Below are positions 2,694 through 61,492 of a stretch of DNA of 64,000 nucleotides, in pieces (position 1 is the first letter of the stretch; each line of letters starts with the position of its first letter). Position numbers and translations under genes: made by a program. Source of the stretch: a candidate division WOR-3 bacterium (GTDB taxonomy: Bacteria; Hydrothermota; Tepidihabitantia; B3-TA06); the NCBI GenBank assembly GCA_023128825.1, contig JAGMDF010000082.1, forward strand, positions 8,626-72,625, given 5' to 3'. The notes beneath the pieces are model-generated. The model saw only the letters and a list, made by a program, of their open reading frames with translations. It did not search any database and had not been told where the DNA came from.

Positions 2694-4544
2694 ATGAAGA
2701 AAGCCCTTCTCGTTTTCTTGCTTGTGGCAGTAGCGGCGCCTGCTCAGTTCAGCGACGCCGTAGGAACTACTGCACACCCCCTTTTGAAGATAGGATTCGG
2801 GCCGCGTGCGGCGGCGATGGGTAACGCCTATGTAGGACTTGCACCGGACATCACCGCCCTCTGGTGGAATCCCGCAGGTCTCAACCAGCTCAACACCTAC
2901 GAAGCCCTGATCTCGCATCACGAATGGCTGCGGGGCATAAGAGACGAGTTTGCGGCCCTCATATGGCCGCAATCGGCCAACAACACCTTCGGTTTCGCCA
3001 TGAACTTTACAAGTGCTTCAGGCATCGAACGCTGGGATGCAGATAACAATCCGGGAACCGGGGCAGATTCCCTGGTCATGGCCTACGAGGCTATGCTTGT
3101 GGGCTCATACACTCGTCTCTTGGGTGAAAGATTCGGCGTAGGGGCGAGCTTTAAGGGTCTTTATGAGAATCTCGCCGGTCCTGCAGGCTACGGCGGAGCG
3201 GTTGATCTCTCGCTCCACTGGAAGGCTTCCCCGGTCTTCGCTCTGGGCCTTGCCCTGCAGAATCTTGGTCCCGGGATGTTCTATACAGGCGGCATGTATC
3301 TGTTTCCAATGCAGGCTCAGTTAGGTGCGGCACTTACGTTCGAGAATGTCCTCTACGGGTTGAACTTGTTAACCGACGTCCGGGTGCCCTTTGACAACAA
3401 TGTGAGCGTGCATGCCGGTGCCGAGGTTTGGCCGCTTGAGATCCTGGCCGCGCGCGTAGGGTTCCAGTCAGGTCCTCAGACATTGGGAGAGCTCAACTTC
3501 CTTGCCGGTCTGACCGGAGGCGTAGGACTTGTGTTGAACAACTATCGTGTTGATTACGCGATTGCCCCCTACGCCCACCTTGGATTGACTCATCGACTGG
3601 CTCTTATCGCGGCCTTCGGCGAGAGGCCGCGTTACGGCGGCGTCATAGTTCGCGTGATCGATGCGGAGACGAAGAAATCCCTTGCGGCCCATCTTAAGGT
3701 CGAGGGGGTTACCAGGGCAGAGAATGATCTGGTCGAGAATGAAACCTGGGAGCGCAAAGGACTCGCTCCAGGAAGGGTCTCTGCAACCGCCAGCAAGGAA
3801 GACTACTACCCATCCTCCGGTCAGGCCCAGATCAAAGCCGGCCAGACAGCCCAACTCGTCATCGCCCTCTCAAAGATCCCGCCTGGAGGAATAACAGGTC
3901 GTGTCTTCGACGTGAAGACTAACGATCCCCTTGTGGCCACGATTACCTACGAAGGACCCGAAGGGATCAAGGGCGAGGTCAAAACCGACGAAGAGGGCAA
4001 CTACACCATACCTGGACTCTACAGAGGCGACTATGCACTGTTTGCCGAGCCACAGCATCCCAAGTACTTCCCACAGGATGCCGAGGTTAAGGTAGAGGCG
4101 GCAAAAGGCGCCAGGAAGGACTTTGCGCTGCTGCGTGAGAAAGAGCTAATCGTCTTCTACAACGTGAACTTCGAGACCGGCGAGGCCAGGGTCCTTCCCG
4201 ATTTCTACGACGTGCTAGATGAGATCGGCCAGATATTTGCGGATAACCCCACGATCGTGGTGGAGCTGGGTGGACACACCGATTCACGTCCCATAAAGAC
4301 CCCGGAGTTCGCAGACAACGTGGAGCTCTCCCAGGCGCGTGTAGAAGCGGTCCGTGAGTATCTCATAGACAAGTTCCAAATCGATGAAGAACGACTCTCA
4401 GCCAAAGGATACGGCGACACACAACCTATTGCCTCCAATGAGACCGAAGAAGGTATGGCGAAGAACCGCCGCGTGGAGTTCAAGGTACTAACCGGTATTG
4501 AATACTTCCACGAGATCCGCAACATCAGACCAGAGGAAGACTAG
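2694..4544 (+). CDS. Outer-membrane protein: PorV/PorQ-type beta-barrel fused to two carboxypeptidase-regulatory-like domains and an OmpA_C peptidoglycan-binding domain
   Basis: Signal peptide MKKALLVFLLVAVAAPAQF. PorV/Q signature GPRAAAMGNAYVGLAPDITALWWNPAGL. Mid-region GGITGRVFDVKTNDPL...EEGNYTIPGLYRGDYAL (CRD-like). C-terminus ELGGHTDSRP...LSQARVEAVREYL...NRRVEFKV (OmpA_C). SD AAGGAGGG lies upstream. Confidence 0.8.
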   Translation: MKKALLVFLLVAVAAPAQFSDAVGTTAHPLLKIGFGPRAAAMGNAYVGLAPDITALWWNPAGLNQLNTYEALISHHEWLRGIRDEFAALIWPQSANNTFGFAMNFTSASGIERWDADNNPGTGADSLVMAYEAMLVGSYTRLLGERFGVGASFKGLYENLAGPAGYGGAVDLSLHWKASPVFALGLALQNLGPGMFYTGGMYLFPMQAQLGAALTFENVLYGLNLLTDVRVPFDNNVSVHAGAEVWPLEILAARVGFQSGPQTLGELNFLAGLTGGVGLVLNNYRVDYAIAPYAHLGLTHRLALIAAFGERPRYGGVIVRVIDAETKKSLAAHLKVEGVTRAENDLVENETWERKGLAPGRVSATASKEDYYPSSGQAQIKAGQTAQLVIALSKIPPGGITGRVFDVKTNDPLVATITYEGPEGIKGEVKTDEEGNYTIPGLYRGDYALFAEPQHPKYFPQDAEVKVEAAKGARKDFALLREKELIVFYNVNFETGEARVLPDFYDVLDEIGQIFADNPTIVVELGGHTDSRPIKTPEFADNVELSQARVEAVREYLIDKFQIDEERLSAKGYGDTQPIASNETEEGMAKNRRVEFKVLTGIEYFHEIRNIRPEED

Positions 4545-29935: not shown

Positions 29936-29963
29936 TTGACATCTTAGTGGGTTGAGTTAGGAT
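29936..29963 (+). promoter_or_regulatory. Promoter (TTGACA-16-TAGGAT)
   Basis: TTGACA at 29936-29941 and TAGGAT at 29958-29963. SD AAAGGAGG precedes ATG 29983. Confidence 0.55.
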
Positions 29964-29982
29964 AGAGCAAAGGAGGCGACTG

Positions 29983-31671
29983 ATGAAAAAAGTGGTGTTG
30001 ATTATGGGAGGGCTGATTTTATGCGGCTCACTTTGGGCTACCGCTCCGATGAGGGAAGGTCCATACCCCAGGGAAGCAATTCCCTCTCCTCTGATGCCGG
30101 ACACCATGAATCCATTGAAACTGCGCTTCAACTATCTTTACGAGTTTGCACAGATTGCCCAGTTCTGCGCCGAATGGCAGCTGGACGAGGCGGATTCTGC
30201 AGATCACGGCGGGATGATAGAGGCGGAAACAGGCCCTCTGCGCCCGGTAATCCAGACCGACAACACCCTGGAGGCGATCTGGGTGTGGGCGCGCTACGGG
30301 GAATTTACCGGAGATACGGCCAGGTTCCGGGAGAATATCGACAAAGCATGGTTTTACTGCAACAACTTCCCCGCCTGGCAGGAGGAGGGTGAGCCGGGTG
30401 CCCATTATTACCGCAACCACAACTGCGCGTGGGGCGTGGCGGCGGAGCAGCGCTACCGCGCGGTGTATGCTGACGACGCCTACAGGTGGTATGCCGATTC
30501 CTGTGCGGAGTTCATGAAGTTCCATCCCATGAACATCTGGAACATGGTCAACCGCTTCGTCACCGGCTGGTGCGCGGGTTGGCTGTACTCCTACGGGGTG
30601 GAGCGAGAAGACGGCGAGGCCCGGGACAGTGCGTGCTCGTTCGCCGACAGCCTGCTCAGCTTCATCGAACCCCAGATCGAGGCAAAGCTCGGGGACGAAA
30701 GGTGGGCGATGTCTGCAGGAACCATGGTGTGGGGCATCTGTAACTCCGCCTTTCAGCGAGATAGTCTCAGAGGCAAGGAATGGATCGAGGCAAACGGCCC
30801 CTACCTTGATACCTTCCAGACCTGGTATGCCAACGATTATTTCTCCTGGGATAACGCCTGGAACGTGGGGTTTGCCAACGGCCACGGCGCGATGTACGAT
30901 ATATCGCATGATCCTACTTATGCCCGCCACCACCGCTGGCTCACCCACAAGCTTCTTTCCTACGATACCGACTCGGACGGCGGGATAATGGCCACCACCC
31001 AGGACGTGGATACCACGGACATGACCTGGGTGTCATTATATCTCTGCATGATGGGTCTTGACCGGTTGATCGGAGAAGTTTATGACTACGACGCGGGCGC
31101 GCTGGAGATTGTGGGACTCCACGACGGTGATCAGATAGAGGAGGGAACCCGGATGGACCTGGTGGCGGTGGTTTCGAATTACGGTCGAGAGCCGCTCAGC
31201 AACGTAAAGGTGACACTTTCTGGCGACGCATCGGGTTCGGCTGAATCAGACCTTGCCTTCCTTGGGATGGACACGATAACGCTCGTATTTGATTGGCTTG
31301 TACCTGATTCGGCTGTGCTTACCCTGACGACATCACATCCACAGGACGAAGATCACGCTAACGACACATTGATCGTGCGGCTGAACAAAGCGGCAGGCAT
31401 AAATGAGGGGTCGAAAAAACCGTCGAGATTACATCTGGAGGTCGCCTCCCTGACAAAATCGATCTGCCGCATTACTTATGCCCTTCCTGAGGGGAATCAC
31501 GGTGAGCTTTCGCTCTACAACATCCTCGGCGCCAAAGTCAAAAGAGAAAACCTGAGGACTTCTGATGGAGTAGTGGATTGGGATCTTTCCGGGCTACCCG
31601 GCGGGGTTTACTTCGTCCGGCTCAACTCAGGAGATCATCACATCACAAGGCGGCTTACCTTGTTGCGTTAA
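29983..31671 (+). CDS. Secreted protein with T9SS-type C-terminal sorting domain (N-terminal region possibly alpha/alpha-toroid-like)
   Basis: Signal peptide MKKVVLIMGGLILCGSLWA. C-terminus ELSLYNILGAKVKRENL...WDLSGLPGGVYFVRLNSGDHHITRRLTLLR. Confidence 0.75.
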   Translation: MKKVVLIMGGLILCGSLWATAPMREGPYPREAIPSPLMPDTMNPLKLRFNYLYEFAQIAQFCAEWQLDEADSADHGGMIEAETGPLRPVIQTDNTLEAIWVWARYGEFTGDTARFRENIDKAWFYCNNFPAWQEEGEPGAHYYRNHNCAWGVAAEQRYRAVYADDAYRWYADSCAEFMKFHPMNIWNMVNRFVTGWCAGWLYSYGVEREDGEARDSACSFADSLLSFIEPQIEAKLGDERWAMSAGTMVWGICNSAFQRDSLRGKEWIEANGPYLDTFQTWYANDYFSWDNAWNVGFANGHGAMYDISHDPTYARHHRWLTHKLLSYDTDSDGGIMATTQDVDTTDMTWVSLYLCMMGLDRLIGEVYDYDAGALEIVGLHDGDQIEEGTRMDLVAVVSNYGREPLSNVKVTLSGDASGSAESDLAFLGMDTITLVFDWLVPDSAVLTLTTSHPQDEDHANDTLIVRLNKAAGINEGSKKPSRLHLEVASLTKSICRITYALPEGNHGELSLYNILGAKVKRENLRTSDGVVDWDLSGLPGGVYFVRLNSGDHHITRRLTLLR

Positions 31672-52382: not shown

Positions 52383-52414
52383 ACGCTCCTTTTTGCATAC
52401 GCAAAAAGATCGCG
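52383..52414 (-). repeat. Family-A hairpin repeat (minus orientation, variant flank ACGCTCC)
   Basis: The plus strand reads ACGCTCC-TTTTTGC-ATAC-GCAAAAA-GATCGCG. Confidence 0.65.
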
Positions 52415-52537
52415 ATTTAATACACCTCTATTCAAAAGGTGACTCATCTTATCCCTCCCCCTCCCACACACAGCATGAGAGACCACTCCTGCTATAAATT
52501 AAGGGGACGGCCACAGCCGCCCCCTTAAGATTTCTCT

Positions 52538-52571
52538 CTGCGACCTTTCTCCCCATGGGAGAAAGGAGCAT
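52538..52571 (+). repeat. Family-A hairpin repeat, 2 nt from the stop codon of the PorV-like gene
   Basis: CTGCGACC-TTTCTCCC-CAT-GGGAGAAA-GGAGCAT. Confidence 0.75.
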
Positions 52572-52573
52572 TT

Positions 52574-53656
52574 TTAAAACGCTATTCCCAGCGAAGCGCG
52601 ATGAACCGGCGCTAAATACCAGTGCCACTCGAAGCTGTAGTCAACCGCTACGTCGTAGCTTCCGACAGGTATCTTGACGCCAAGCCCTGCCGAGGGGCCG
52701 CGGGTGTTGCGGTTAGAAAGCACTTCACGAGCAATAGTGGCGGCATCAACGGATGTGGTGCCTTCTTCGTCGTCTCCAAAATCGGGTGCGGTGTTGAGAC
52801 CTAAACCCAGGCGCAAGAAAAGCGTCTCGTTGAGCCCATACTCCAGGCCGATGGCACCCTTGGCAGGCTGGTCCGATATATGAGCGAAATCCGCTGTCAT
52901 GGTAAGACGTGAGGGGGGACCTTCAATAAGGTCTATGGCCACACCGCCAGCAAATGTGAAGGGCATGTGGAAAGGTTCGGATTTGTAGGTGGACGGTATG
53001 TCCTCGGTCTGAAGGGTATCCTTTCTGGTGTTGAAGATGAGACCTTCACCTTTGTATGCCATGTCCGGACCGAAGTGCTGCACCACGAATCCCAACCTGA
53101 AGTTGCGTATCCCGACGTTATAGGTAGCACCGACATCAACCGCGAATCCCCAGGCGGCAACTCGATGCAGGGTAAGGTCGATGGCTTTAAGGGTGACACC
53201 CGCCGAGAACTTTTCAGTCATCTTGCGTCCATAGGATATACCCACCGCGTAGTTGTTGGCCATGTAGTAGTTACCCGTACCGTCTTGATCATCGTAGGTC
53301 GTGATTTCAATCGGGCCGGAAAGGTGCGCGAGAACCTGAAAACCTAACGCGTCGAGTTCGCTTAAGGGAACTCCGAGTGCAAGATTCTCTTCAAGCATGC
53401 CGGCAAAGAGGATCGCCTGCCCGAAGGTCCCGGCTATCCTGTCCATATTAGCTATCCCGGCCGGGTTCCAGAATAAAGCGTCCGGTCCGTCGGCCAAGGC
53501 GGTATAGGCACACCCCATAGCTATGGGGCGGGCACCGCCGCCCATCGTAAGGAAGGACACGGAGGCACCGGACCCACCCAGACGTGCCGAAAGCGGCGTC
53601 GCGATCACCGCCAGGGCCAGGATGCTGAGGACAAGGAGTCTTCTACTCGTCTTCAT
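52574..53656 (-). CDS. PorV/PorQ-family outer-membrane beta-barrel
   Basis: Signal MKTSRRLLVLSILALAVIATPLSA. Signature GGGARPIAMGCAYTALADGPDALFWNPAGIANM. Terminal aromatic residue (GIAF). Confidence 0.75.
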   Translation of the reverse strand: MKTSRRLLVLSILALAVIATPLSARLGGSGASVSFLTMGGGARPIAMGCAYTALADGPDALFWNPAGIANMDRIAGTFGQAILFAGMLEENLALGVPLSELDALGFQVLAHLSGPIEITTYDDQDGTGNYYMANNYAVGISYGRKMTEKFSAGVTLKAIDLTLHRVAAWGFAVDVGATYNVGIRNFRLGFVVQHFGPDMAYKGEGLIFNTRKDTLQTEDIPSTYKSEPFHMPFTFAGGVAIDLIEGPPSRLTMTADFAHISDQPAKGAIGLEYGLNETLFLRLGLGLNTAPDFGDDEEGTTSVDAATIAREVLSNRNTRGPSAGLGVKIPVGSYDVAVDYSFEWHWYLAPVHRASLGIAF

Positions 53657-53665
53657 CTTTTCCTC

Positions 53666-56600
53666 CTACCGGATGATGGCAAACTTGCCAACTTTGGTTT
53701 TCTTCTTGCCGTCCGAGGTTTCGGCCTCAACCTGCCAGATATACAAGCCGCTTGTACAGTCCATTCCTGCTTCGGTTAAGAGATCCCATTCCTCGGAACC
53801 TGCAGCTCCATAGAGGCCTTCTCCATCGTGCTCGATCGTACGAATCAAAAGACCCGCCGAGTTGAAGATCCTGATACTACACTTGAGGGGCAGGCGCTGG
53901 AAGATCACGTGACGGTCGTACTGACTGCGATCCCAGGGGGCGCGTACGTAGTAGGGGTTGGGAACAACCCGGACGTCGTCAAGGGTCTGGGTGGTGTCGT
54001 CTTCATCCAAACGAGCTGCAAACGTAGTGTAGCGGAAGCGATCCTCTTCGCTGGTAGCTTTGAGCGTCTTTATGAGGAACTTGTCCCCGGGCTCAGGCGG
54101 TATAACGTACCTTGTGGTGTCCCAACCTATCGTGTCGTTAGTAACGGTATCGACAATCGGCCTCCGGGTCGTAGCCGTGTCAACGAAGGAGAGTTTGAAC
54201 ACCTCCTTACCAGGCTTTATCTCTTCCCAGTAGATGGAAACACTGGTGTTGCCCGTGATGTCCAAGCGATCAATGTTCGGGTCGCCGTCTTTATTCCATA
54301 GGAAAGATTCCACCGGCTCGTTATTATCGTATCGATTAACCACCACAGGGCCCCACCGATCTTTACCATCTTGTGCGCTGTCAACCACTGTTACAAGGTA
54401 ATCGATGGTGTAGGGAACAGGTCTTCCTCGAATTGCGTTGGTCCAATCCATATTCCAATACATGTCGGTCTTAGAGGGTCTCTCGAGCCAGCCGGTATAG
54501 AGGGTGTCAATCAACTCCTCGACATCCAGGGTGTCAATGGGAACAGAGGCAACCTGAACCAGCACCCCGTCGATGATCGGACCGCTCAGCTCGCCCGCGT
54601 GCGTAAGGAAGCTGTCGAGAACGAGGGAGTCGGCATCAACGTCCTTGAAGTAGGCGTACTTGATGATGTCCAGGGTGTCTATCGTCACATCCGATCCTTC
54701 GATAATGGTATCGATCCTGGTCACCGCGCGGAAGCCGACCTCGTACTCGTGGCCTGTGATCTCGTCCGGGGAGATGAGGCTGTCTCTAACCAGCGCGCTG
54801 CCGTCGCCAGCAACACGAATTACCGGCCCGACCATCGCATCCTGCCAGCCCATCGGGTTGGAGCGGGAAACCGCCCAGTAGGTTTTGCCGGTCTTGCCGC
54901 CTTCAAGCGACTCCACACCTTCGGTGGGTTGAGGTTTAGAATAGGATGTAACGGAGTAGTAGTAGATCTGACCGTTGCGAACATCCTCATCGACGTAGTA
55001 GTGACGCACGCCGACCTGCCCGCCGAGCTGAGTTTCGGTGTAAGTGTTAATGGTGAAGACCTCGCCGTGAATCGGTTCAAGGATGTCTCCAGTAGCGCCT
55101 GAGTCGGCGTCTGAGATGCAGTACTGCCCGCCGTCGATAAAGATTATATCTCCGGACTCGTAGGGATAGTAGTGGGGGCCGTCGACGCCGCCGGTAATCG
55201 GGTCTGCATTGGTTACCGTAACTCCGGGCAAAACAGGCTTAACGATGGTGGTGATCTGACCGGCCGTGACGTTACCTACAGTACCAGCTACCCTTGCCTC
55301 GATATTAACGTCCACCGGGGTTCCCGGAGGGTCAATCGTCCCGTTTTGCGTAGTCTCGAACTCCACGTATCCGAAGACAGGGTTGTCTGCATCGGTGGCG
55401 ACGATTGTACCTTTGGGAATCAGCGTGTCACCGGGACCAGGAGTAAAGGTCACTTTACCCTTGGCTTTTACCGCTGCGGGAAAAGCCTTGGGGGTGCCGT
55501 TGAGTTTGTCAAGCACGCAGTAACCACTTTCTTCAAGGGCATCGGGGTTGTAGGTCAGGATGTTCTGGGTTGCAACGTCATAGACGATGTAATACTTGTA
55601 AGAGGTGTCCTTCTTGTCCTGCTGGAATGTGAGGGTGTAGGTGTTGGGCTCGAATCCGTACTCGGCTGGTTCCTTGCGAGTGAATTCATTGTAGTATACC
55701 TCAAGGAACTCGATGCTGGCCTTGCTCGGCCCGGATGTGTGTTCGACAACGGCCGTATCCGGATTTTTCGAATCCTTCAGATCGTAGTCGCCAAGGAGTT
55801 GCCAGGTCTCTGAGAGCCCCGAAAGACTCTTGTAGATCCGGTAACCTTCAAAGGTCGGCTGACCGCTCATCGGATCAATATAGTGCTCAGATTCACTGCC
55901 CCAGGTAAGATAGACTACGCTGTCGCCGGGAATCACCGAAAGGGAGGGGTTCGGAGGAGGTGCGTAGCCGAAGTAACCGTTCTCGAACTGAATCTTAGCA
56001 GACTTGGCCTTCTCTTTGAGTTCATCAAAAGAGTAGGCAACGATCACCGCGATGGTTAACTCCACCTCTTCATCAGGCTTCAGGTGCGGATAAGGGCCGC
56101 AGTTCATGAGCATGCGTACGTCGTTAGGCTTATCATAAGTCCAAAACTCCGTATGGGCCATGTAAGCGTACTTGAGACTGTCCTGTCCCAGGTTGTCTAT
56201 CTCATAACCGTTCGGCCAGGTCTCGAAGCCTGTTAGTCCGATATCCAGAGGGGTATCGAGGAAAACAGCACCTATGTATCCTGCCGGGGTAACCCAGCCT
56301 TCCTCCGAGCCGTTGGCATCGTAGGTGTAACCCATGTTGAGTTCCTGATCGAACCCGATCAGATCGTCCCAGAAACCGTCATCACCTGCACTGGTTCCAC
56401 CCTCTCCGATGTCGTTGTCCATGAAGAAGGAGAAGTAGACCGAATCCAGCGGGAAGTCGTTCATATTCCTAATCTTGTAGTTGATGAAGATGTAGGAATT
56501 GTTGTACTCGTAGTTCCAGGCATACGTACGCTGCTCGATTCTTAGCCCCTGCCCACGCAAGTCGTAGGCACCTGTTGAGAGTATCCATATGCACGTGGCG

Positions 56601-57349
56601 TCGTTGGCCGGAATCCAGTCCCCGCCGCAGGCGTAGCTATCCTGCTCGGAGATGATGTCTCCGTTTCCAAAGGGACCAGGGCTGACCTCAGGCATCTGTA
56701 TTGCACGGCGATACTTGTTGATCGTGGTATCCGTAAACGGCCAGAGCACCTGGTAGTCAAGAGGGGTAGTTCCGGGAGTGGCAAAGAGCCTTCCGCCTTC
56801 ACCGTCATACCCGTAGCCTTGAGGGATGGTCATATCACTGAAGTAAAGCCCGAGGTTGCTGATGTCGCGCATGCCGCCTGCGATTTTCATCTCCGGAGCG
56901 GCCATAGCTCCAATGTCCGAGTTAAAGGCACCCTTGGAGACGTTATAGACCATCTCGTCTCCAACCGGGTAGTGGCTGCCGACCCACAGACCCCACGCAT
57001 AGGTGTAGAACTGCTCTGAGCCTTTGGGATACTCGGCGTTCCTGCCTCTCGTGTTAGGATAAAGCCTGCTAGACTCTATGGGGAATTCCCCTCTGTATTC
57101 GTGTTCGTCTGCCGGGTGGCGGGCGAATGTGCCGCCCTGAAGGGTATTGCTGACCAGGAAGTCTGAGATGTTTCCTGCGTCTACCCACCATATCATCCAC
57201 CAGGAGGCCGCCTCGTTTGTCGCCACGGTCAAGAGACGGTTTTGATTTTGGGGTGCAAGCTGAACGTCGCTATCCATTCTGGCAAGAACGGGTAAAGCCA
57301 GAAACACGAGGCTCGCTAAAACAAGGATTGTTTTTCTTTTCATCGTCAT
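53666..57349 (-). CDS. 1227-aa secreted protein of unknown function with T9SS/FlgD-Ig-like C-terminal sorting domain
   Basis: Signal peptide MTMKRKTILVLASLVFLALPVLA. C-terminus VVPNPYYVRAPWDRSQ...CSIRIFNSAGLLIRTIEHDG...WDLLTEAGMDCTSGLYIWQVEAETSDGKKKTKVGKFAIIR. No catalytic motif recognised. Confidence 0.8.
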   Translation of the reverse strand: MTMKRKTILVLASLVFLALPVLARMDSDVQLAPQNQNRLLTVATNEAASWWMIWWVDAGNISDFLVSNTLQGGTFARHPADEHEYRGEFPIESSRLYPNTRGRNAEYPKGSEQFYTYAWGLWVGSHYPVGDEMVYNVSKGAFNSDIGAMAAPEMKIAGGMRDISNLGLYFSDMTIPQGYGYDGEGGRLFATPGTTPLDYQVLWPFTDTTINKYRRAIQMPEVSPGPFGNGDIISEQDSYACGGDWIPANDATCIWILSTGAYDLRGQGLRIEQRTYAWNYEYNNSYIFINYKIRNMNDFPLDSVYFSFFMDNDIGEGGTSAGDDGFWDDLIGFDQELNMGYTYDANGSEEGWVTPAGYIGAVFLDTPLDIGLTGFETWPNGYEIDNLGQDSLKYAYMAHTEFWTYDKPNDVRMLMNCGPYPHLKPDEEVELTIAVIVAYSFDELKEKAKSAKIQFENGYFGYAPPPNPSLSVIPGDSVVYLTWGSESEHYIDPMSGQPTFEGYRIYKSLSGLSETWQLLGDYDLKDSKNPDTAVVEHTSGPSKASIEFLEVYYNEFTRKEPAEYGFEPNTYTLTFQQDKKDTSYKYYIVYDVATQNILTYNPDALEESGYCVLDKLNGTPKAFPAAVKAKGKVTFTPGPGDTLIPKGTIVATDADNPVFGYVEFETTQNGTIDPPGTPVDVNIEARVAGTVGNVTAGQITTIVKPVLPGVTVTNADPITGGVDGPHYYPYESGDIIFIDGGQYCISDADSGATGDILEPIHGEVFTINTYTETQLGGQVGVRHYYVDEDVRNGQIYYYSVTSYSKPQPTEGVESLEGGKTGKTYWAVSRSNPMGWQDAMVGPVIRVAGDGSALVRDSLISPDEITGHEYEVGFRAVTRIDTIIEGSDVTIDTLDIIKYAYFKDVDADSLVLDSFLTHAGELSGPIIDGVLVQVASVPIDTLDVEELIDTLYTGWLERPSKTDMYWNMDWTNAIRGRPVPYTIDYLVTVVDSAQDGKDRWGPVVVNRYDNNEPVESFLWNKDGDPNIDRLDITGNTSVSIYWEEIKPGKEVFKLSFVDTATTRRPIVDTVTNDTIGWDTTRYVIPPEPGDKFLIKTLKATSEEDRFRYTTFAARLDEDDTTQTLDDVRVVPNPYYVRAPWDRSQYDRHVIFQRLPLKCSIRIFNSAGLLIRTIEHDGEGLYGAAGSEEWDLLTEAGMDCTSGLYIWQVEAETSDGKKKTKVGKFAIIR

Positions 57350-57361
57350 TTCTCCTCTGGC

Positions 57362-60300
57362 CTAAAAGCTCACACGGATGCCGAAGCGCAGCTCACGCGG
57401 AGCACCAAACATCGCCGGACTCTGAGCGTAGTAATGCTCCCAGTCAGCAACATCGGCCTGCCAGTTTTCGTATTCGTCTGCAAAGCCGTTGCTTGCGTAG
57501 TTGCGGTAGTTGGCCTCTTCGTAGACAGGGCGTCCACCGTTGTCGTCAGGGAGACCCGTATTGCTGTAAACATTCACCACGTTACGCCAGTCAAAGATGT
57601 TGCGAACATCGAAGTACGCTCCCAGCCTGAGTCTCTCTCCCAGAGGGAACCACTTCTCCAGCTTGGCATCCAGGGTCTTGGTGCCCGGCATACGCCGGGT
57701 GCCCATGGGTATTATGTTGCCGCGGGAGTCGGTTCCCCAGTAAGGCTGCCCGGAAGCGTAGTTGAACTGAACGTTCAGATTGGTCAGTCTCAAAGCTTTG
57801 ACTGAGAAGTCCGGGGCAAGATAGAAGTTCAAGTTGGCCTTGAGCGAGTGTGTAACGTCGAACTCCAACGGGTACTCGTGCTTCGGGGGCTCAAGAGCGG
57901 TGCCGCGATAGCGGTAGTAGAACTCACGCCCTGAAGAACCGGTACCCTTGGCATCCATGAAGGAGTAGGTTATATTCCAGGAAAGAAAGCGGGCTGCCCG
58001 ACGAACCAAACCCACATCGAAACCCGTGACCTTGGCAAAATCCTCGATTACGTACACGGTGTAGGTCGAAAGTTTACCCTTGTAGATTGTGTTTACGCTA
58101 CGGGTAGCCAGAAGATTCTCCTGATCCTTGTAGTAACCCTTAAGCTCAAACGCCATGTCATTGGATATGGCGTACTTGTATCCCGCCTGGTAGAAGATCG
58201 TCTTAAGAGGCGGCAGATTGGGGTTACCCAGCAGAGGTACGCCCACGGTGATGTCGGCTTCCAGATTCTCATAAAGATCCTGCAGGTTGACCGGCTGGAA
58301 GAAGTGACCGTAGGAAGCATACATCATGGATTTTTCAGACACCGCGAAGGAGATCGAAAGACGAGGGCTGAACTGGAATTTAGGCTTTGCAACTACCTTG
58401 CCGGAGTCGATGTTCTCAGGGTCAACAAAGTAGTCGGATGCAGGATGGAAGAAATCGAAGCGAACGCCCGCGTTAAGCTCCAAATCCTCGTACTTGATCT
58501 TGTCCTGAACGTAGGCCGCAGCGATGATCGGTTCCTTGTGGTAGGTATCGTTGTAGGGGTTCTCGTTGACAAACTGGATACTCTTGTAGTCGAGGAAATG
58601 ATAGTTTCCGCTCATGCCTGCCTTGAACCAGTGGACCTCGTTGGGGTTCCAGTCGAAGGAAGCGTCAGCTATGTACTTGGTGGTGTTGCGCTCCGCCCAG
58701 TAGGGGAAGAAGTAGTAACGGAAACGACGGAACAAGGGGTCGGTGTTGTAACGAACGTAATAGAGATTCCCTGAACTCTCAAGGCTGTCCTCGTAGGGAT
58801 TATCAACGGTGGTATCCTTCCAGTTCTGCCAGAGGTCGTAGTAGTGTTTGTAGAGGTCAAAATCGAAGAGGTGGTAGTGCACGCCTACGGTGTCAATTAT
58901 TGTATCCGTTCCTTCAATCCTGGTTTCAACCGTGGGCCGCCACTCGTTGACCTCGTACCAGCGCCAGTTGAGGGACTCAAGCTGCTCCTTACAGCCTACC
59001 CATCGGAATACGCTGTCGCCGTCTATAAGGTAGCCGTTCTTTTTGACGTACTCGTTGTGGAAGAACCAGACCGCGGAGTCCGGATCCTCAGTGATGGCTG
59101 AGTAGCGCTCAAGGATGTTGAAGTAAATAGAGTCCTGGGTGTTGTTGTCAACGTAGGCAAAGGTTGACTCTGGGATATAAAAGCTCATGGAGTCCGCGTT
59201 GTAGATGCGCTGTAAGGTCGAGTCTATTATGGTGTCTCCTTCTTCGGAGATGGTGGTATCATGTTCCCACCAGGTCCGACCGTAGGCCCAGGTTACCCAA
59301 TCCATCAGCATACGACCCACCATGCGGAAATCGTTGTAATGCGCGCCGTCCATGTAGGAGGTCTTGCTATGGGTGTTGAATGTACCTACGTTGACCGTGT
59401 ACGCTATCTTGTCAATACGCTGATTGACCTTGAGATTCAACTGATAGTTGTCCTGGTTAACCATAGGTCCATTCTGTAACCAGATGCCTTTCGAGTAGGC
59501 GTGGCTGTAGCCATGACGCCAGGTGTTGGAGTAGTTGCCTGAAAGGGTAAACTTAGCTCCACCCTCTGTCGGTCGCCAGGCAAGCTTAAGCGTTCCGTTC
59601 TTGCGGTGCTGATCGTTGAATGGGAGTCTGTTTTCGTGTTCGAGGATGTTCCCGGAGATGAAGAAGGAGGAACGCGGCAGACCCAGCGGCCCGCCAAAGG
59701 ACAAGGATCCCTTGTTATGCCACATATCCTTGTTCGGATATTTGATCGGATCCTTACTCAGCCTCAGGTGAGCGTCGGTTTCATACTCGGCTGTGCCCTC
59801 GAATCTCTGGCTACTGCCTTCACGGGTGACGATGTTGACCACCGCGGACATCGCATCGCCGTACTCGGCATTGAAGGTGCCGGTGTTAATGGTTATCTCC
59901 TGAATAGCCGTGTTGTCTATGTAGACGCCCGATTGACCGGTCACTGGATCGTTGGCGTTGATACCGTCAACCACGTAGACCACCTCGTTGGTTCGGCCGC
60001 CCTGGATGTGCAGACCTGACGAGTAGCCACTCGCAGTCTCGGTAGCTCCAGCTACAAGCCTTACAACGTCCTGGTAGTTATCCACCGGCATACGTATGAT
60101 CTCCCCACGCTCTATGGGATGTGGCTCCGTTGTGAGAAGCGGGCGGGTGGCCGTAATTATTTGCACCGGCATATCGATGCTTCCGGGCTTTAACCTTGCA
60201 TCCTGTTTGGTAACCTGGTCGGCCGTAACCTTGACACCGCTCACCACAACAACCTGGTAGCCAATCATCGAGAACTCAAGGGTGTATTCGCCGGCACGAA

Positions 60301-60514
60301 GGTTAGAGATCACGTAGGTTCCATCCATGCCGGTTGCAGCACCAGTGACGGACTCACCATTCTGTCGCACGATGACGTTTACAGAGGGCAGTGGATCTCC
60401 TGTTCCGGCGTCTCTTACCCGCCCGGTGATCTTCCCCATGATACCGGCCATTAAAAGACCTGGAATGAGAAGTAACACCATGGCGAGAAAGACGCCCCTT
60501 ACTTTTACTCTCAC
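57362..60514 (-). CDS. TonB-dependent receptor with N-terminal carboxypeptidase-regulatory-like domain
   Basis: GKITGRVRDAGTGDPLPSVNVIV (CarbopepD_reg), plug region VVRLVAGATE...LHIQGGRTNEVVYVVDGINANDP, and barrel terminus RELRFGIRVSF. GTG start behind AGGAGG. Confidence 0.85.
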   Translation of the reverse strand: MRVKVRGVFLAMVLLLIPGLLMAGIMGKITGRVRDAGTGDPLPSVNVIVRQNGESVTGAATGMDGTYVISNLRAGEYTLEFSMIGYQVVVVSGVKVTADQVTKQDARLKPGSIDMPVQIITATRPLLTTEPHPIERGEIIRMPVDNYQDVVRLVAGATETASGYSSGLHIQGGRTNEVVYVVDGINANDPVTGQSGVYIDNTAIQEITINTGTFNAEYGDAMSAVVNIVTREGSSQRFEGTAEYETDAHLRLSKDPIKYPNKDMWHNKGSLSFGGPLGLPRSSFFISGNILEHENRLPFNDQHRKNGTLKLAWRPTEGGAKFTLSGNYSNTWRHGYSHAYSKGIWLQNGPMVNQDNYQLNLKVNQRIDKIAYTVNVGTFNTHSKTSYMDGAHYNDFRMVGRMLMDWVTWAYGRTWWEHDTTISEEGDTIIDSTLQRIYNADSMSFYIPESTFAYVDNNTQDSIYFNILERYSAITEDPDSAVWFFHNEYVKKNGYLIDGDSVFRWVGCKEQLESLNWRWYEVNEWRPTVETRIEGTDTIIDTVGVHYHLFDFDLYKHYYDLWQNWKDTTVDNPYEDSLESSGNLYYVRYNTDPLFRRFRYYFFPYWAERNTTKYIADASFDWNPNEVHWFKAGMSGNYHFLDYKSIQFVNENPYNDTYHKEPIIAAAYVQDKIKYEDLELNAGVRFDFFHPASDYFVDPENIDSGKVVAKPKFQFSPRLSISFAVSEKSMMYASYGHFFQPVNLQDLYENLEADITVGVPLLGNPNLPPLKTIFYQAGYKYAISNDMAFELKGYYKDQENLLATRSVNTIYKGKLSTYTVYVIEDFAKVTGFDVGLVRRAARFLSWNITYSFMDAKGTGSSGREFYYRYRGTALEPPKHEYPLEFDVTHSLKANLNFYLAPDFSVKALRLTNLNVQFNYASGQPYWGTDSRGNIIPMGTRRMPGTKTLDAKLEKWFPLGERLRLGAYFDVRNIFDWRNVVNVYSNTGLPDDNGGRPVYEEANYRNYASNGFADEYENWQADVADWEHYYAQSPAMFGAPRELRFGIRVSF

Positions 60515-60850
60515 GTTAAACCTCCTAGCTCTAGCTGGATGGGTTTTTCAACATAACTCTATGTGAACTGGGGTCGGAATACTCCGATTACAAAGAATTG
60601 ACGCACCTCCTTTTCTTTCGTGGGAATTCACACTTTGACATTCACTCATAATAACCGTCCGTTTTTGCAGGCCGCCCTAGAAAGCCCAACATTAACTCAT
60701 CTGCTCAAGAGGGTTACACGGGGAGACAATCCAACTCCTTCGTGTATACCTTCGTATTTGAGTATAGGTTTCTTTCCTGACTTGTCAAGTGGTAGGAAAT
60801 CTGTGCGCCAGGAGATCATTGCCAGGGGGTGGGCCTACATTTAACAAACC

Positions 60851-60901
60851 GTGTGGAACGGGCTCTCTAGCCCGTTCTTTTATATTATGCACAGGCTGGA
60901 G
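60851..60901 (+). repeat. Family-D direct repeat, copy 1 (about 52 nt, contains a terminator-like hairpin)
   Basis: GTGTGGAACGGGCTCTCTAGCCCGTTCTTTTATATTATGCACAGGCTGGAG. Hairpin GAACGGGC-TCTCTA-GCCCGTTC followed by TTTTAT. Confidence 0.8.
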
Positions 60902-60962
60902 CACCCGACGGGGGTACACTGGTATGGAGTGCGACAACGCGGTTGTCGCACTCCAAAGTTAT

Positions 60963-60997
60963 ATGCTCCTTTTTACCTGGCGGTAAAAAGATCGCAG
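60963..60997 (-). repeat. Family-A hairpin repeat (minus orientation)
   Basis: The plus strand reads ATGCTCC-TTTTTACC-TGGC-GGTAAAAA-GATCGCAG. Confidence 0.75.
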
Positions 60998-61012
60998 TAT
61001 AGAACTGTCCTA

Positions 61013-61053
61013 GGGGTCCCCGCGGCGTTACGAAGTAACGGCGTGGGGTAAAG
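61013..61053 (+). repeat. Family-B hairpin repeat
   Basis: GGGGTCCCCGCGGCGTTACGAAGTAACGGCGTGGGGTAAAG. Confidence 0.7.
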
Positions 61054-61094
61054 TTACACCTCCCCCTTGACGGGGGAGAGTAGGGAGGGGGATT

Positions 61095-61132
61095 GTCATT
61101 GCGAGCGAACGAAGTGAGCGAAGCAATCTCGT
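61095..61132 (-). repeat. Family-E repeat
   Basis: The plus strand reads GTCATTGCGAGCGAACGAAGTGAGCGAAGCAATCTCGT. The minus strand reads GAGATTGCTTCGCTCACTTCGTTCGCTCGCAATGAC. Confidence 0.6.
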
Positions 61133-61241
61133 AAAGATGACAAAGGCGTCTCAGTCATTATGAGGAGCGAGTGTTCGTGACGAGCGACATGACACCGAAG
61201 GACGACGCTTGCGGAGTAATCTCATTCTGCAAGGCGGTGCT

Positions 61242-61297
61242 ATGAGATCGCCACACTTCCCCGCCTCTTACGAGGCGGACGGTCGGTCGCGATGACA
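61242..61297 (+). repeat. Family-E repeat
   Basis: ATGAGATCGCCACACTTCCCCGCCTCTTACGAGGCGGACGGTCGGTCGCGATGACA, with internal hairpin CCGCCTC-TTAC-GAGGCGG. Confidence 0.6.
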
Positions 61298-61361
61298 TTT
61301 AATCTTCCCCTCCCCTGGTGGGAGGGGTCGGAGACGAAGTCGACGGGGGAAGGGGAAACAT

Positions 61362-61395
61362 ATGCTCCTTTTCGCCTGTGGCGAAAAGATCGCAG
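61362..61395 (-). repeat. Family-A hairpin repeat (minus orientation)
   Basis: The plus strand reads ATGCTCC-TTTTCGCC-TGT-GGCGAAAA-GATCGCAG. Confidence 0.75.
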
Positions 61396-61440
61396 AGAAA
61401 GAATCGGTACATTCCCTTCGGGAATAGCTAGCGGCCCCGC

Positions 61441-61492
61441 GTGTGGAACGGGCTCTCTAGCCCGTTCTTTTATGATTATCCACAGGCTGGAG
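61441..61492 (+). repeat. Family-D direct repeat, copy 2
   Basis: GTGTGGAACGGGCTCTCTAGCCCGTTCTTTTATGATTATCCACAGGCTGGAG. It differs from copy 1 by one indel and one substitution. Confidence 0.8.

Follow-up and report, generated by a model that had tools for sequence, protein, structure and literature searches.

Three adjacent genes of a candidate division WOR-3 bacterium (B3-TA06) form one operon, and the trio is inherited in an all-or-none manner. The operon lies in a 64,000-nucleotide (nt) stretch of contig JAGMDF010000082.1, here termed the window, with positions counted from its start. It encodes, in order of transcription on the minus strand, a TonB-dependent receptor, a 1227-amino-acid (aa) secreted protein to which we give the working name BIG, and an outer-membrane barrel of the PorV/PorQ family. 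The spacers between the open reading frames (ORFs) measure only 12 nt (57350-57361) and 9 nt (53657-53665), exactly the gaps given by an earlier, sequence-only reading of this DNA. We consider it somewhat probable that the operon encodes an outer-membrane nutrient-uptake complex, which would work in a manner similar to the SusC/SusD or XusA/XusB pairs while being assembled differently. A wider proposal, put forward tentatively, is that such triads constitute an undescribed class of TonB-dependent uptake machines, widespread in phyla related to the Fibrobacteres-Chlorobi-Bacteroidetes (FCB) group outside Bacteroidota. The substrate-capturing lid of these machines would be no lipoprotein but a giant protein exported by a type IX secretion system (T9SS) and permanently docked, via a PorZ-like C-terminal domain (CTD), on a PorQ-like barrel of its own.

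Conservation of the triad

A scan of 185,579 species genomes with BIG yielded 73 loci, the lineages of which were read from the titles of the genome records. Flanking ORFs were scored with the receptor and barrel of the window itself, and the 57 loci with room on both sides were counted. Both neighbours were found at 49 of the 57, neither at eight and only one at none, with median gaps at the triad loci of 18 nt and 10.5 nt. It is the recurrence of the same order and tight spacing at 49 independent loci that places the arrangement far beyond chance. The triad spans roughly ten phylum-level lineages, the loci of the scan coming from Stahlbacteria/WOR-3, Gemmatimonadota, Calditrichota, Zixibacteria, Delongbacteria, Eisenbacteria, Fermentibacteria, Neomarinimicrobiota, Ignavibacterium and one ‘Cytophagia’ metagenome-assembled genome (MAG); conservation across FCB-related and candidate phyla, which the sequence-only reading had named as a check on the module, is thus borne out. 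MAGs assigned to Ignavibacterium album, Caldithrix and Marinimicrobia are among the hits. Look-ups of six diverse homologues placed a receptor and a barrel at the locus in all six. Searching in reverse from three distant barrel homologues (28-30% identity), two were found in receptor-BIG-barrel triads whose middle genes profile comparison identified as homologous to BIG (E 1e-40 and 1e-52), and the third in a different arrangement.

The plain receptor-BIG-barrel order is seen, for example, at loci L004, L006 and L007, and several variants exist. In an Ignavibacteriaceae locus (L005), BIG is followed by two unrelated genes and then by the receptor and barrel, whilst in one WOR-3-related subclade a four-gene variant carries an ~600-aa NHL/PKD-repeat protein between BIG and the barrel (L001/L002, L003, L020-L022, L025 and L078). 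At ~30 loci of other phyla, a fourth gene on the same strand follows the barrel and encodes a member of a 680-890-aa family (e.g. L040:14104-16152, L045:14035-16638 and L076:10032-12194), which has no Pfam domain except a canonical FlgD_ig/Por_Secre_tail CTD. No homologue of this gene was found in the window apart from a CTD-only match at 29956-31668. The three-gene module originally described therefore holds for the window, but in most other phyla the module also includes this gene, whose product is a canonically tailed T9SS cargo. Some genomes contain two divergent triads, in tandem at L016 and at two separate loci in one Fermentibacteria MAG, a pairing typical of nutrient-uptake paralogues.

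The eight loci with neither neighbour match the head domain of BIG alone (query residues ~17-450), and head-only proteins retrieved in the protein search end in canonical Por_Secre_tail CTDs (P0050, P0053, P0055 and P0061). Since these exceptions share only the head, it is, judged by homology, the C-terminal ~750 residues of BIG with their special CTD that are co-inherited with the receptor and barrel, and this portion is accordingly the likely docking part of the protein.

A TonB-dependent transporter outside the SusC family

The first gene product possesses a signal peptide, a CarboxypepD_reg extension, a Plug domain (Table 1) and a large barrel, with a TonB-box-like PVQIITATRP, read by eye, after the N-terminal extension. 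The earlier description of a 1050-aa TonB-dependent receptor composed of CarboxypepD_reg, plug and barrel stands, both domains exceeding their Pfam cut-offs, and Pfam TonB_dep_Rec_b-barrel (PF00593) is recorded on receptor orthologues. Partial matches to TIGR01785 and TIGR01786 were also obtained. When a profile of 24 receptor orthologues was compared with solved structures, it matched PhuR (6e-25, barrel region), Cir (5e-23), XusA (9gbc; 1e-18) and PfeA, such that the protein has both the N-terminal plug and a C-terminal barrel homologous to known transporters. Structure 9gbc, checked as a possible T9SS component, is cited in a Bacteroides xenosiderophore-uptake paper, and we take it for the transporter XusA; no other solved structure covers the N-terminal third of the profile as well. 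The CarboxypepD_reg extension also matches the N-terminal extension of the SusC homologue 9hfj.

Membership of the SusC/RagA family was considered and rejected, as no SusC/RagA model is among the NCBIfam matches of the receptor at E<=0.01 and, among solved structures, PhuR, Cir, PfeA and XusA stand closest to it. The SusC/SusD-type likeness drawn by the sequence-only reading is thus retained for the SusC-style extension and lost for the receptor family. Taken together, the CarboxypepD_reg and Plug domains, the matches to solved transporters and the lack of a SusC/RagA match identify the protein, by homology, as a true TonB-dependent transporter that, despite the SusC-style extension at its N terminus, lies outside the SusC family. 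ExbB-ExbD-ExbD-TonB genes lie immediately upstream of the triad in L003, and the ExbB family occurs at seven loci, with none in the window. A real import function is likely, given the plug, extension and importer-related barrel, the ExbBD-TonB genes at some loci and the existence of divergent triad copies.

BIG, an unnamed protein family

BIG has a signal peptide without a lipobox cysteine, and any retention on the cell would therefore require a protein anchor. Its full-length AlphaFold2 model (predicted local distance difference test, pLDDT, 85.4; predicted template-modelling score, pTM, 0.71) comprises, in order, a β-supersandwich head, an Fn3-like domain with insertions, further β-sandwiches and an Ig-like CTD, together with a baseplate-J-like insert. 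Neither Pfam nor NCBIfam has a family over the body of the protein, and a PDB profile search with BIG matched only the baseplate-J insert and the CTD. These searches, together with a phmmer search of the head, leave intact the initial view of a protein of no assignable function or family; that view had recognized the signal peptide and missed the Baseplate_J domain (residues 625-723) and the N-terminal fold. In a set of 5.8 billion proteins, BIG has 97 homologues, none with a functional name: most are annotated ‘hypothetical’, a few ‘T9SS type A sorting domain-containing protein’, while a single UniRef entry takes its name from the baseplate insert. Two unnamed protein families are defined here, that of BIG and that of the fourth-gene cargo.

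In the structure model, the head resembles the non-catalytic N-domains of GH15/GH94 enzymes. A glycoside hydrolase (GH) or phosphorylase of the GH15/GH65/GH94 type was rejected as an identity for BIG, as BIG shares no more with these enzymes than the non-catalytic supersandwich and the catalytic (α/α)6 barrel is lacking. An exhaustive phmmer search with the head domain returned 461 representatives at E<=1e-3 and, at the stricter E<=1e-30, 38; several hundred otherwise unannotated proteins, 300-1900 aa long (P0169-P0279), share its C-terminal half (mature residues ~240-440). Three of ten sampled distant matches have T9SS tails, and apart from such tails no Pfam domain occurs in any of the ten. 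By these comparisons the head represents a domain family without a name that far outnumbers the triad-linked proteins. It also occurs in unlinked T9SS cargos, contains invariant acidic residues and is likely to be a ligand-binding or processing module. Numbered in the mature protein (full-length number minus 27), the invariant residues are D284, D286, D301, D317, E322, D363, D383, R247, R385 and W325.

The middle region of BIG is the most variable among close relatives. The baseplate-J insert shares 38% identity with the phiCD508 baseplate protein and 40-45% with baseplate wedge proteins of Clostridioides, Thermus and Brevibacillus phages; of the closest BIG homologues only ~9 have it, and it is cleanly absent from others that are 60-76% identical elsewhere. 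BIG was rejected as a full phage Baseplate_J protein, only profile positions 19-111 of 255 being matched and no tail genes lying nearby.

The sorting domain and its putative barrel partner

The CTD of BIG had been read as a T9SS/FlgD-Ig-type domain. It is indeed an Ig-like sorting domain, but by curated models it is PorZ/PorU-like rather than of the standard FlgD-Ig or type A kind: no match to the generic T9SS tail models (PF18962, PF13860 and TIGR04183) was found at E<=0.01, whereas the C-terminal ends of the PorZ and PorU models match with 21-23 bits. Across the family, the CTD is PorZ-like in 24 of 31 BIG homologues and matches TIGR04183 in one of the 31. With an Ig-like CTD homologue and a Sec signal, BIG is classed as a T9SS cargo with a PorZ/PorU-like CTD. 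It was rejected as a PorZ orthologue, since NF052228 scores 23 bits against a cut-off of 260, over only the C-terminal ~90 model positions, and the β-propeller region is lacking. Elsewhere in the window, the only domain recognised in a 562-aa protein (29983..31671, plus strand) is a canonical T9SS type A sorting domain (28.5 bits on TIGR04183, cut-off 23), so this genome encodes ordinary T9SS cargos beside the protein with the PorZ-like CTD.

The third gene product matches the NCBIfam PorV/PorQ family NF033709 with 146.8 bits (cut-off 90), in keeping with its original assignment as a PorV/PorQ-type barrel, and all 40 barrel homologues match this model. It is a 14-stranded FadL-like barrel closest to PorV. 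Equivalence to PorV (43.2 bits against 250), PorQ (60.1 against 220) or PorV2 (69.1 against 325) was rejected, and by homology the barrel is a distinct paralogue within the PorV/PorQ family. The window barrel scores slightly higher on the PorQ than on the PorV model, and the PorQ equivalog is the best match, below its cut-off, for 40 out of 40 homologues. PorZ, itself a T9SS protein, is reported to be kept on the surface through its binding to PorQ, while PorV holds PorU and also acts as a shuttle (PMC5562754); cargo-linked cognate shuttles are known for type B CTDs (PMC12618676). By analogy, the small barrel probably holds BIG on the cell. The idea, already present in the sequence-only reading, that a cargo-linked PorV paralogue serves as a dedicated tether has become both more specific and more plausible, given the PorZ-like CTD in 24/31 homologues, the PorQ-leaning barrel and the PorQ-PorZ precedent (PMC5562754).

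The window also encodes a 616-aa fusion protein (2694..4544, plus strand). Its residues 25-306 form a PorV/PorQ-family barrel (138.7 bits on NF033709, cut-off 90), to which are joined CarboxypepD_reg at 400-479 and, at 493-592, an OmpA domain that binds peptidoglycan; the PorE model matches the C-terminal part with 66 bits. This is a second PorV-family paralogue of the genome, apparently tethered to the cell wall.

Layout and genomic context of the operon

The features of the operon are collected in Table 1. A Shine-Dalgarno sequence, GAGGAG, lies 5′ of the BIG gene, that of the barrel gene (TAGGAGG) overlaps the BIG stop codon, and AGGAGG lies 5′ of the receptor GTG start. The promoter-like site is a consensus match only, the count of such sites in the region not exceeding that in shuffles. 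The hairpin pair 3′ of the barrel gene likely marks the end of the operon. On the opposite flank, what had been described as a 1.1-kb repeat-filled non-coding region 5′ of the operon is confirmed as a spacer with no ORF of at least 80 aa. It contains two copies, 590 nt apart, of a 53-nt direct repeat (60850..60901 and 61440..61492) within which a GC-rich hairpin precedes a T-run on the plus strand. A hairpin family, GCGATCTTTT-loop-AAAAGGAGC, is present in three copies (52385..52413, 60965..60995 and 61364..61393), confined within the 64 kb to the two flanks of the operon. An Rfam search of the leader repeats and hairpins found no family and returned only sub-threshold microRNA noise.

Table 1. 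Features of the receptor-BIG-barrel operon and its flanks (window positions)
Feature	Position	Strand	Details
TonB-dependent receptor	57362..60514	-	1050 aa, GTG start
CarboxypepD_reg N-terminal extension of receptor, residues 29-109	60188..60430	-	Pfam PF13620, 65.1 bits against cut-off 32.3
Plug domain of receptor, residues 134-222	59849..60115	-	Pfam PF07715, 31.1 bits against cut-off 23.9
BIG	53666..57349	-	1227 aa, ATG start, Sec signal peptide residues 1-23
N-terminal β-supersandwich head of BIG, ~residues 47-462	55964..57211	-	best-conserved part; invariant acidic motifs FMDNDIG, DDLIGFD, GYTYD
Phage baseplate-J-like insert of BIG, residues 625-723	55181..55477	-	Pfam Baseplate_J PF04865, E 6e-13, ~100 aa
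C-terminal Ig-like sorting domain of BIG, PorZ/PorU-CTD-like, residues 1118-1227	53669..53998	-	first half among the most conserved segments of BIG
PorV/PorQ-family outer-membrane barrel, 14-stranded	52574..53656	-	360 aa, ATG start
Promoter-like site TTGACA-16-TATACT	60761..60788	-	11/12 consensus matches, ~250 nt upstream of receptor start
Two hairpins directly 3′ of barrel stop codon, the second followed by AATTTAT	52491..52566	-	read from sequence
Non-coding leader/spacer with repeats and hairpins	60515..61600	.	1086 nt

The neighbours of triads in relatives were surveyed by clustering 775 flanking ORFs from related loci, among which no universal neighbour beyond the triad was found. The extras are lineage-specific and include, by locus count, the fourth T9SS cargo family (~30), an Opp ATPase (9), the NHL/PKD protein (8), an M6 peptidase (8) and ExbB (7). 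T9SS cargo genes surround many triad loci. At L004, the triad lies in a catabolic context of LacI, a sugar ATP-binding cassette (ABC) transporter, two GH130 enzymes and one GH2; a T9SS GH16 is encoded in L082 and a GH30 in L081, and T9SS peptidases of the M6, S8 and M10 families and an Opp-type ATPase lie beside triads at other loci. No SusD-type gene was found beside this receptor family at the loci examined.

The window itself is ordinary chromosome, with yidC, mnmE, lptF/G and wecB, and the locus is closest to Candidatus Stahlbacteria / WOR-3 MAGs (93-94% protein identity). Downstream of the operon on the same strand, after a hairpin-rich spacer of ~420 nt, lies an efflux set (47833..52155, minus strand) of a TolC-like OEP, HlyD, an ABC ATPase and MacB/FtsX. 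At other Stahlbacteria loci (L008, L010 and L012-L014), a 401-445-aa ORF family follows the barrel, which agrees with the TolC-like gene of the window in size and position, the two features on which they were compared.

A model of nutrient uptake and its alternatives

From genomics and single-chain structure models, we infer a scheme in which the TonB-dependent receptor would serve as the energised import channel and BIG would be exported by Sec and then, via its CTD, by the T9SS. Neither released nor lipid-anchored, BIG would remain bound non-covalently, through its PorZ-like CTD, to the co-encoded PorQ/PorV-like barrel, a retention that would mirror PorQ-PorZ and PorV-PorU in Porphyromonas. 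The carbohydrate-enzyme-like head could then capture, and possibly process, an extracellular polymer or oligomer, with a potential contribution from the variable middle domains, and BIG would present this substrate to the receptor. The substrates are probably glycans or peptides and probably differ between lineages.

A number of points weigh against this scheme. The matches of the CTD to PorZ and PorU are weak (21-23 bits for BIG of the window; best E 1.5e-8 in the family), and the retention of PorZ and PorU CTDs at the surface is established knowledge carried over from those proteins. The supersandwich fold also occurs in proteins that are not carbohydrate-related, for example copper amine oxidases and the periplasmic domain of YidC, so glycan binding by the head is only a lead. 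Contexts in relatives are heterogeneous, the neighbours in the window (the MacAB-TolC efflux set and NlpC/P60) offer no hint of a substrate, and no T9SS core genes were seen in the 64 kb, which contain only the other CTD cargo and the second PorV-family protein. Finally, PG0534, a TonB-dependent-receptor-like barrel, is itself listed among the T9SS-related proteins of P. gingivalis (PMC5445135), which leaves room for a secretion-side role of the triad.

The barrel could instead be a dedicated shuttle and nothing else, conducting BIG specifically through the T9SS translocon as SprF does SprB, with no stable three-protein complex. BIG would then be released, or have its CTD cleaved and be attached to glycolipid, to act as a free or lipopolysaccharide (LPS)-anchored binding protein or enzyme, and the receptor would be co-transcribed because it takes up the product. 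The linkage data fit a transient and a permanent partnership alike, linked cognate shuttles are an established feature of cargos with type B CTDs (PMC12618676) and PorV is a shuttle (PMC5562754); moreover, the fourth T9SS cargo 3′ of the barrel in ~30 loci implies that the barrel could serve secretion generally at the locus. However, these fourth-gene proteins and the unlinked head paralogues have canonical CTDs that Pfam recognises, whereas that of BIG is consistently PorZ-like, PorZ being the anchoring case. Its first half also ranks with the best-conserved stretches of BIG, which is what a lasting interface would lead one to expect, and we regard a role confined to shuttling as unlikely.

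We assign a lower probability still to a module for secretion or surface biogenesis, in which BIG and the barrel would be a local PorZ-PorQ arm of the T9SS attachment complex, the head would bind a surface glycolipid and the receptor would be of the PG0534 type. The PorZ-like CTD, the PorQ-leaning barrel and the carbohydrate-enzyme-like head are all compatible with such a role, as are the many triad loci amid T9SS cargo genes and the example of PG0534, which carries the annotation of a TonB-dependent receptor and appears on a list of proteins that T9SS function requires (PMC5445135). Nevertheless, BIG has no PorZ β-propeller region and reaches 23 bits against 260 on the PorZ model, at its C-terminal end only, and divergent triads occur twice in some genomes, even in tandem, which is unusual for core machinery. 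ExbBD-TonB genes directly upstream at several loci, one triad inside a LacI/ABC/GH130/GH2 catabolic locus and the nutrient importers that are the nearest solved relatives of the receptor likewise speak against it. Least probable, and in our estimation very improbable, is a view of BIG as primarily an adhesin, a surface-layer protein or a phage-interacting protein, in which the variable middle, with its baseplate-J-like insert, is the functional part and linkage to the receptor reflects shared regulation or envelope assembly: the large multi-Ig/Fn3 architecture of the model and a middle region that varies most between close relatives, with a phage baseplate domain that comes and goes there, would suit this, but strict all-or-none linkage to a TonB-dependent receptor across phyla is not expected of an adhesin and the best-conserved part is the head with its invariant acidic residues, not the variable middle.

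Comparison with known systems

The proposed nutrient-uptake complex has its closest functional parallels in SusCD/RagAB and XusAB, and in its anchoring logic would be nearest to PorQ-PorZ and SprF-SprB. In common with SusC/SusD and RagA/RagB, the triad has a transporter with a CarboxypepD_reg extension encoded directly upstream of a large surface-exposed partner, is found in paralogous copies per genome and occurs occasionally in catabolic loci with secreted hydrolases. The components are nonetheless different: SusD is a tetratricopeptide repeat (TPR) lipoprotein, whereas BIG is a 1227-aa all-β T9SS cargo without a lipobox and with no SusD Pfam match, the receptor matches no SusC/RagA model, and the triad has a PorV/PorQ-family barrel as an obligatory third component. 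The Bacteroides xenosiderophore-uptake pair XusA/XusB similarly unites a transporter bearing an N-terminal extension with a dedicated surface capture protein. XusB is a lipoprotein, and we know of no T9SS involvement and no PorV-like barrel in this system.

To our knowledge, porQ and porZ are neither adjacent to one another nor linked to a TonB-dependent receptor gene. The proposed triad shares with PorQ-PorZ and PorV-PorU of P. gingivalis a T9SS-exported protein held by a PorV/PorQ-family barrel (PMC5562754), but BIG lacks both the PorZ β-propellers and the PorU peptidase domain, and the function proposed here is uptake rather than cargo attachment. SprF/PorP proteins with their type B CTD cargos in Flavobacterium johnsoniae provide a case in which a cargo gene is linked to its own outer-membrane partner, which sets secretion and final localisation (PMC12618676); there the barrel is of the PorP/SprF rather than the PorV/PorQ kind, the CTD is type B rather than PorZ-like type A and no receptor is involved. 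A FadL-fold barrel also acts as the platform for a surface protein in BamG-BamH of the Bacteroidota β-barrel assembly machinery (BAM) complex (PMC12578637). In contrast to the triad, BamH is a lipoprotein and the pair functions in barrel assembly; the BamG model reaches only E 0.0018 in the window barrel, and five of 40 homologues pass 1e-5.

A search of the full-text literature found no description of a receptor/T9SS-cargo/PorV-like module, in line with the statement of the sequence-only reading that it knew of no described function. By analogy, the triad may be the counterpart, in little-studied phyla, of the Bacteroidetes SusC/SusD nutrient-capture pair.

Implications

Knowledge of polymer capture in FCB-group bacteria comes mostly from SusC/SusD of Bacteroidota. 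Sediments, the dark ocean and digesters harbour abundant populations of the sister and candidate phyla, among them WOR-3, Marinimicrobia, Calditrichota, Zixibacteria, Gemmatimonadota, Fermentibacteria and Ignavibacteria. These phyla possess TonB-dependent receptors, and the conserved module would provide them with a candidate capture-and-import machine. The findings bear on the T9SS, on TonB-dependent transport and on the ecology of candidate phyla, and the head domain occurs in several hundred unannotated proteins, with T9SS cargos among those checked. The two unnamed families and the head domain are concrete targets for structural and genetic study in cultivable carriers. Should the proposed model prove correct, PorV/PorQ-family barrels would be dedicated permanent anchors outside the Porphyromonas attachment complex, and the T9SS and these barrels would be structural parts of nutrient import, providing a functional replacement for SusD. 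The role of the T9SS would thereby extend from secretion to the assembly of uptake complexes.

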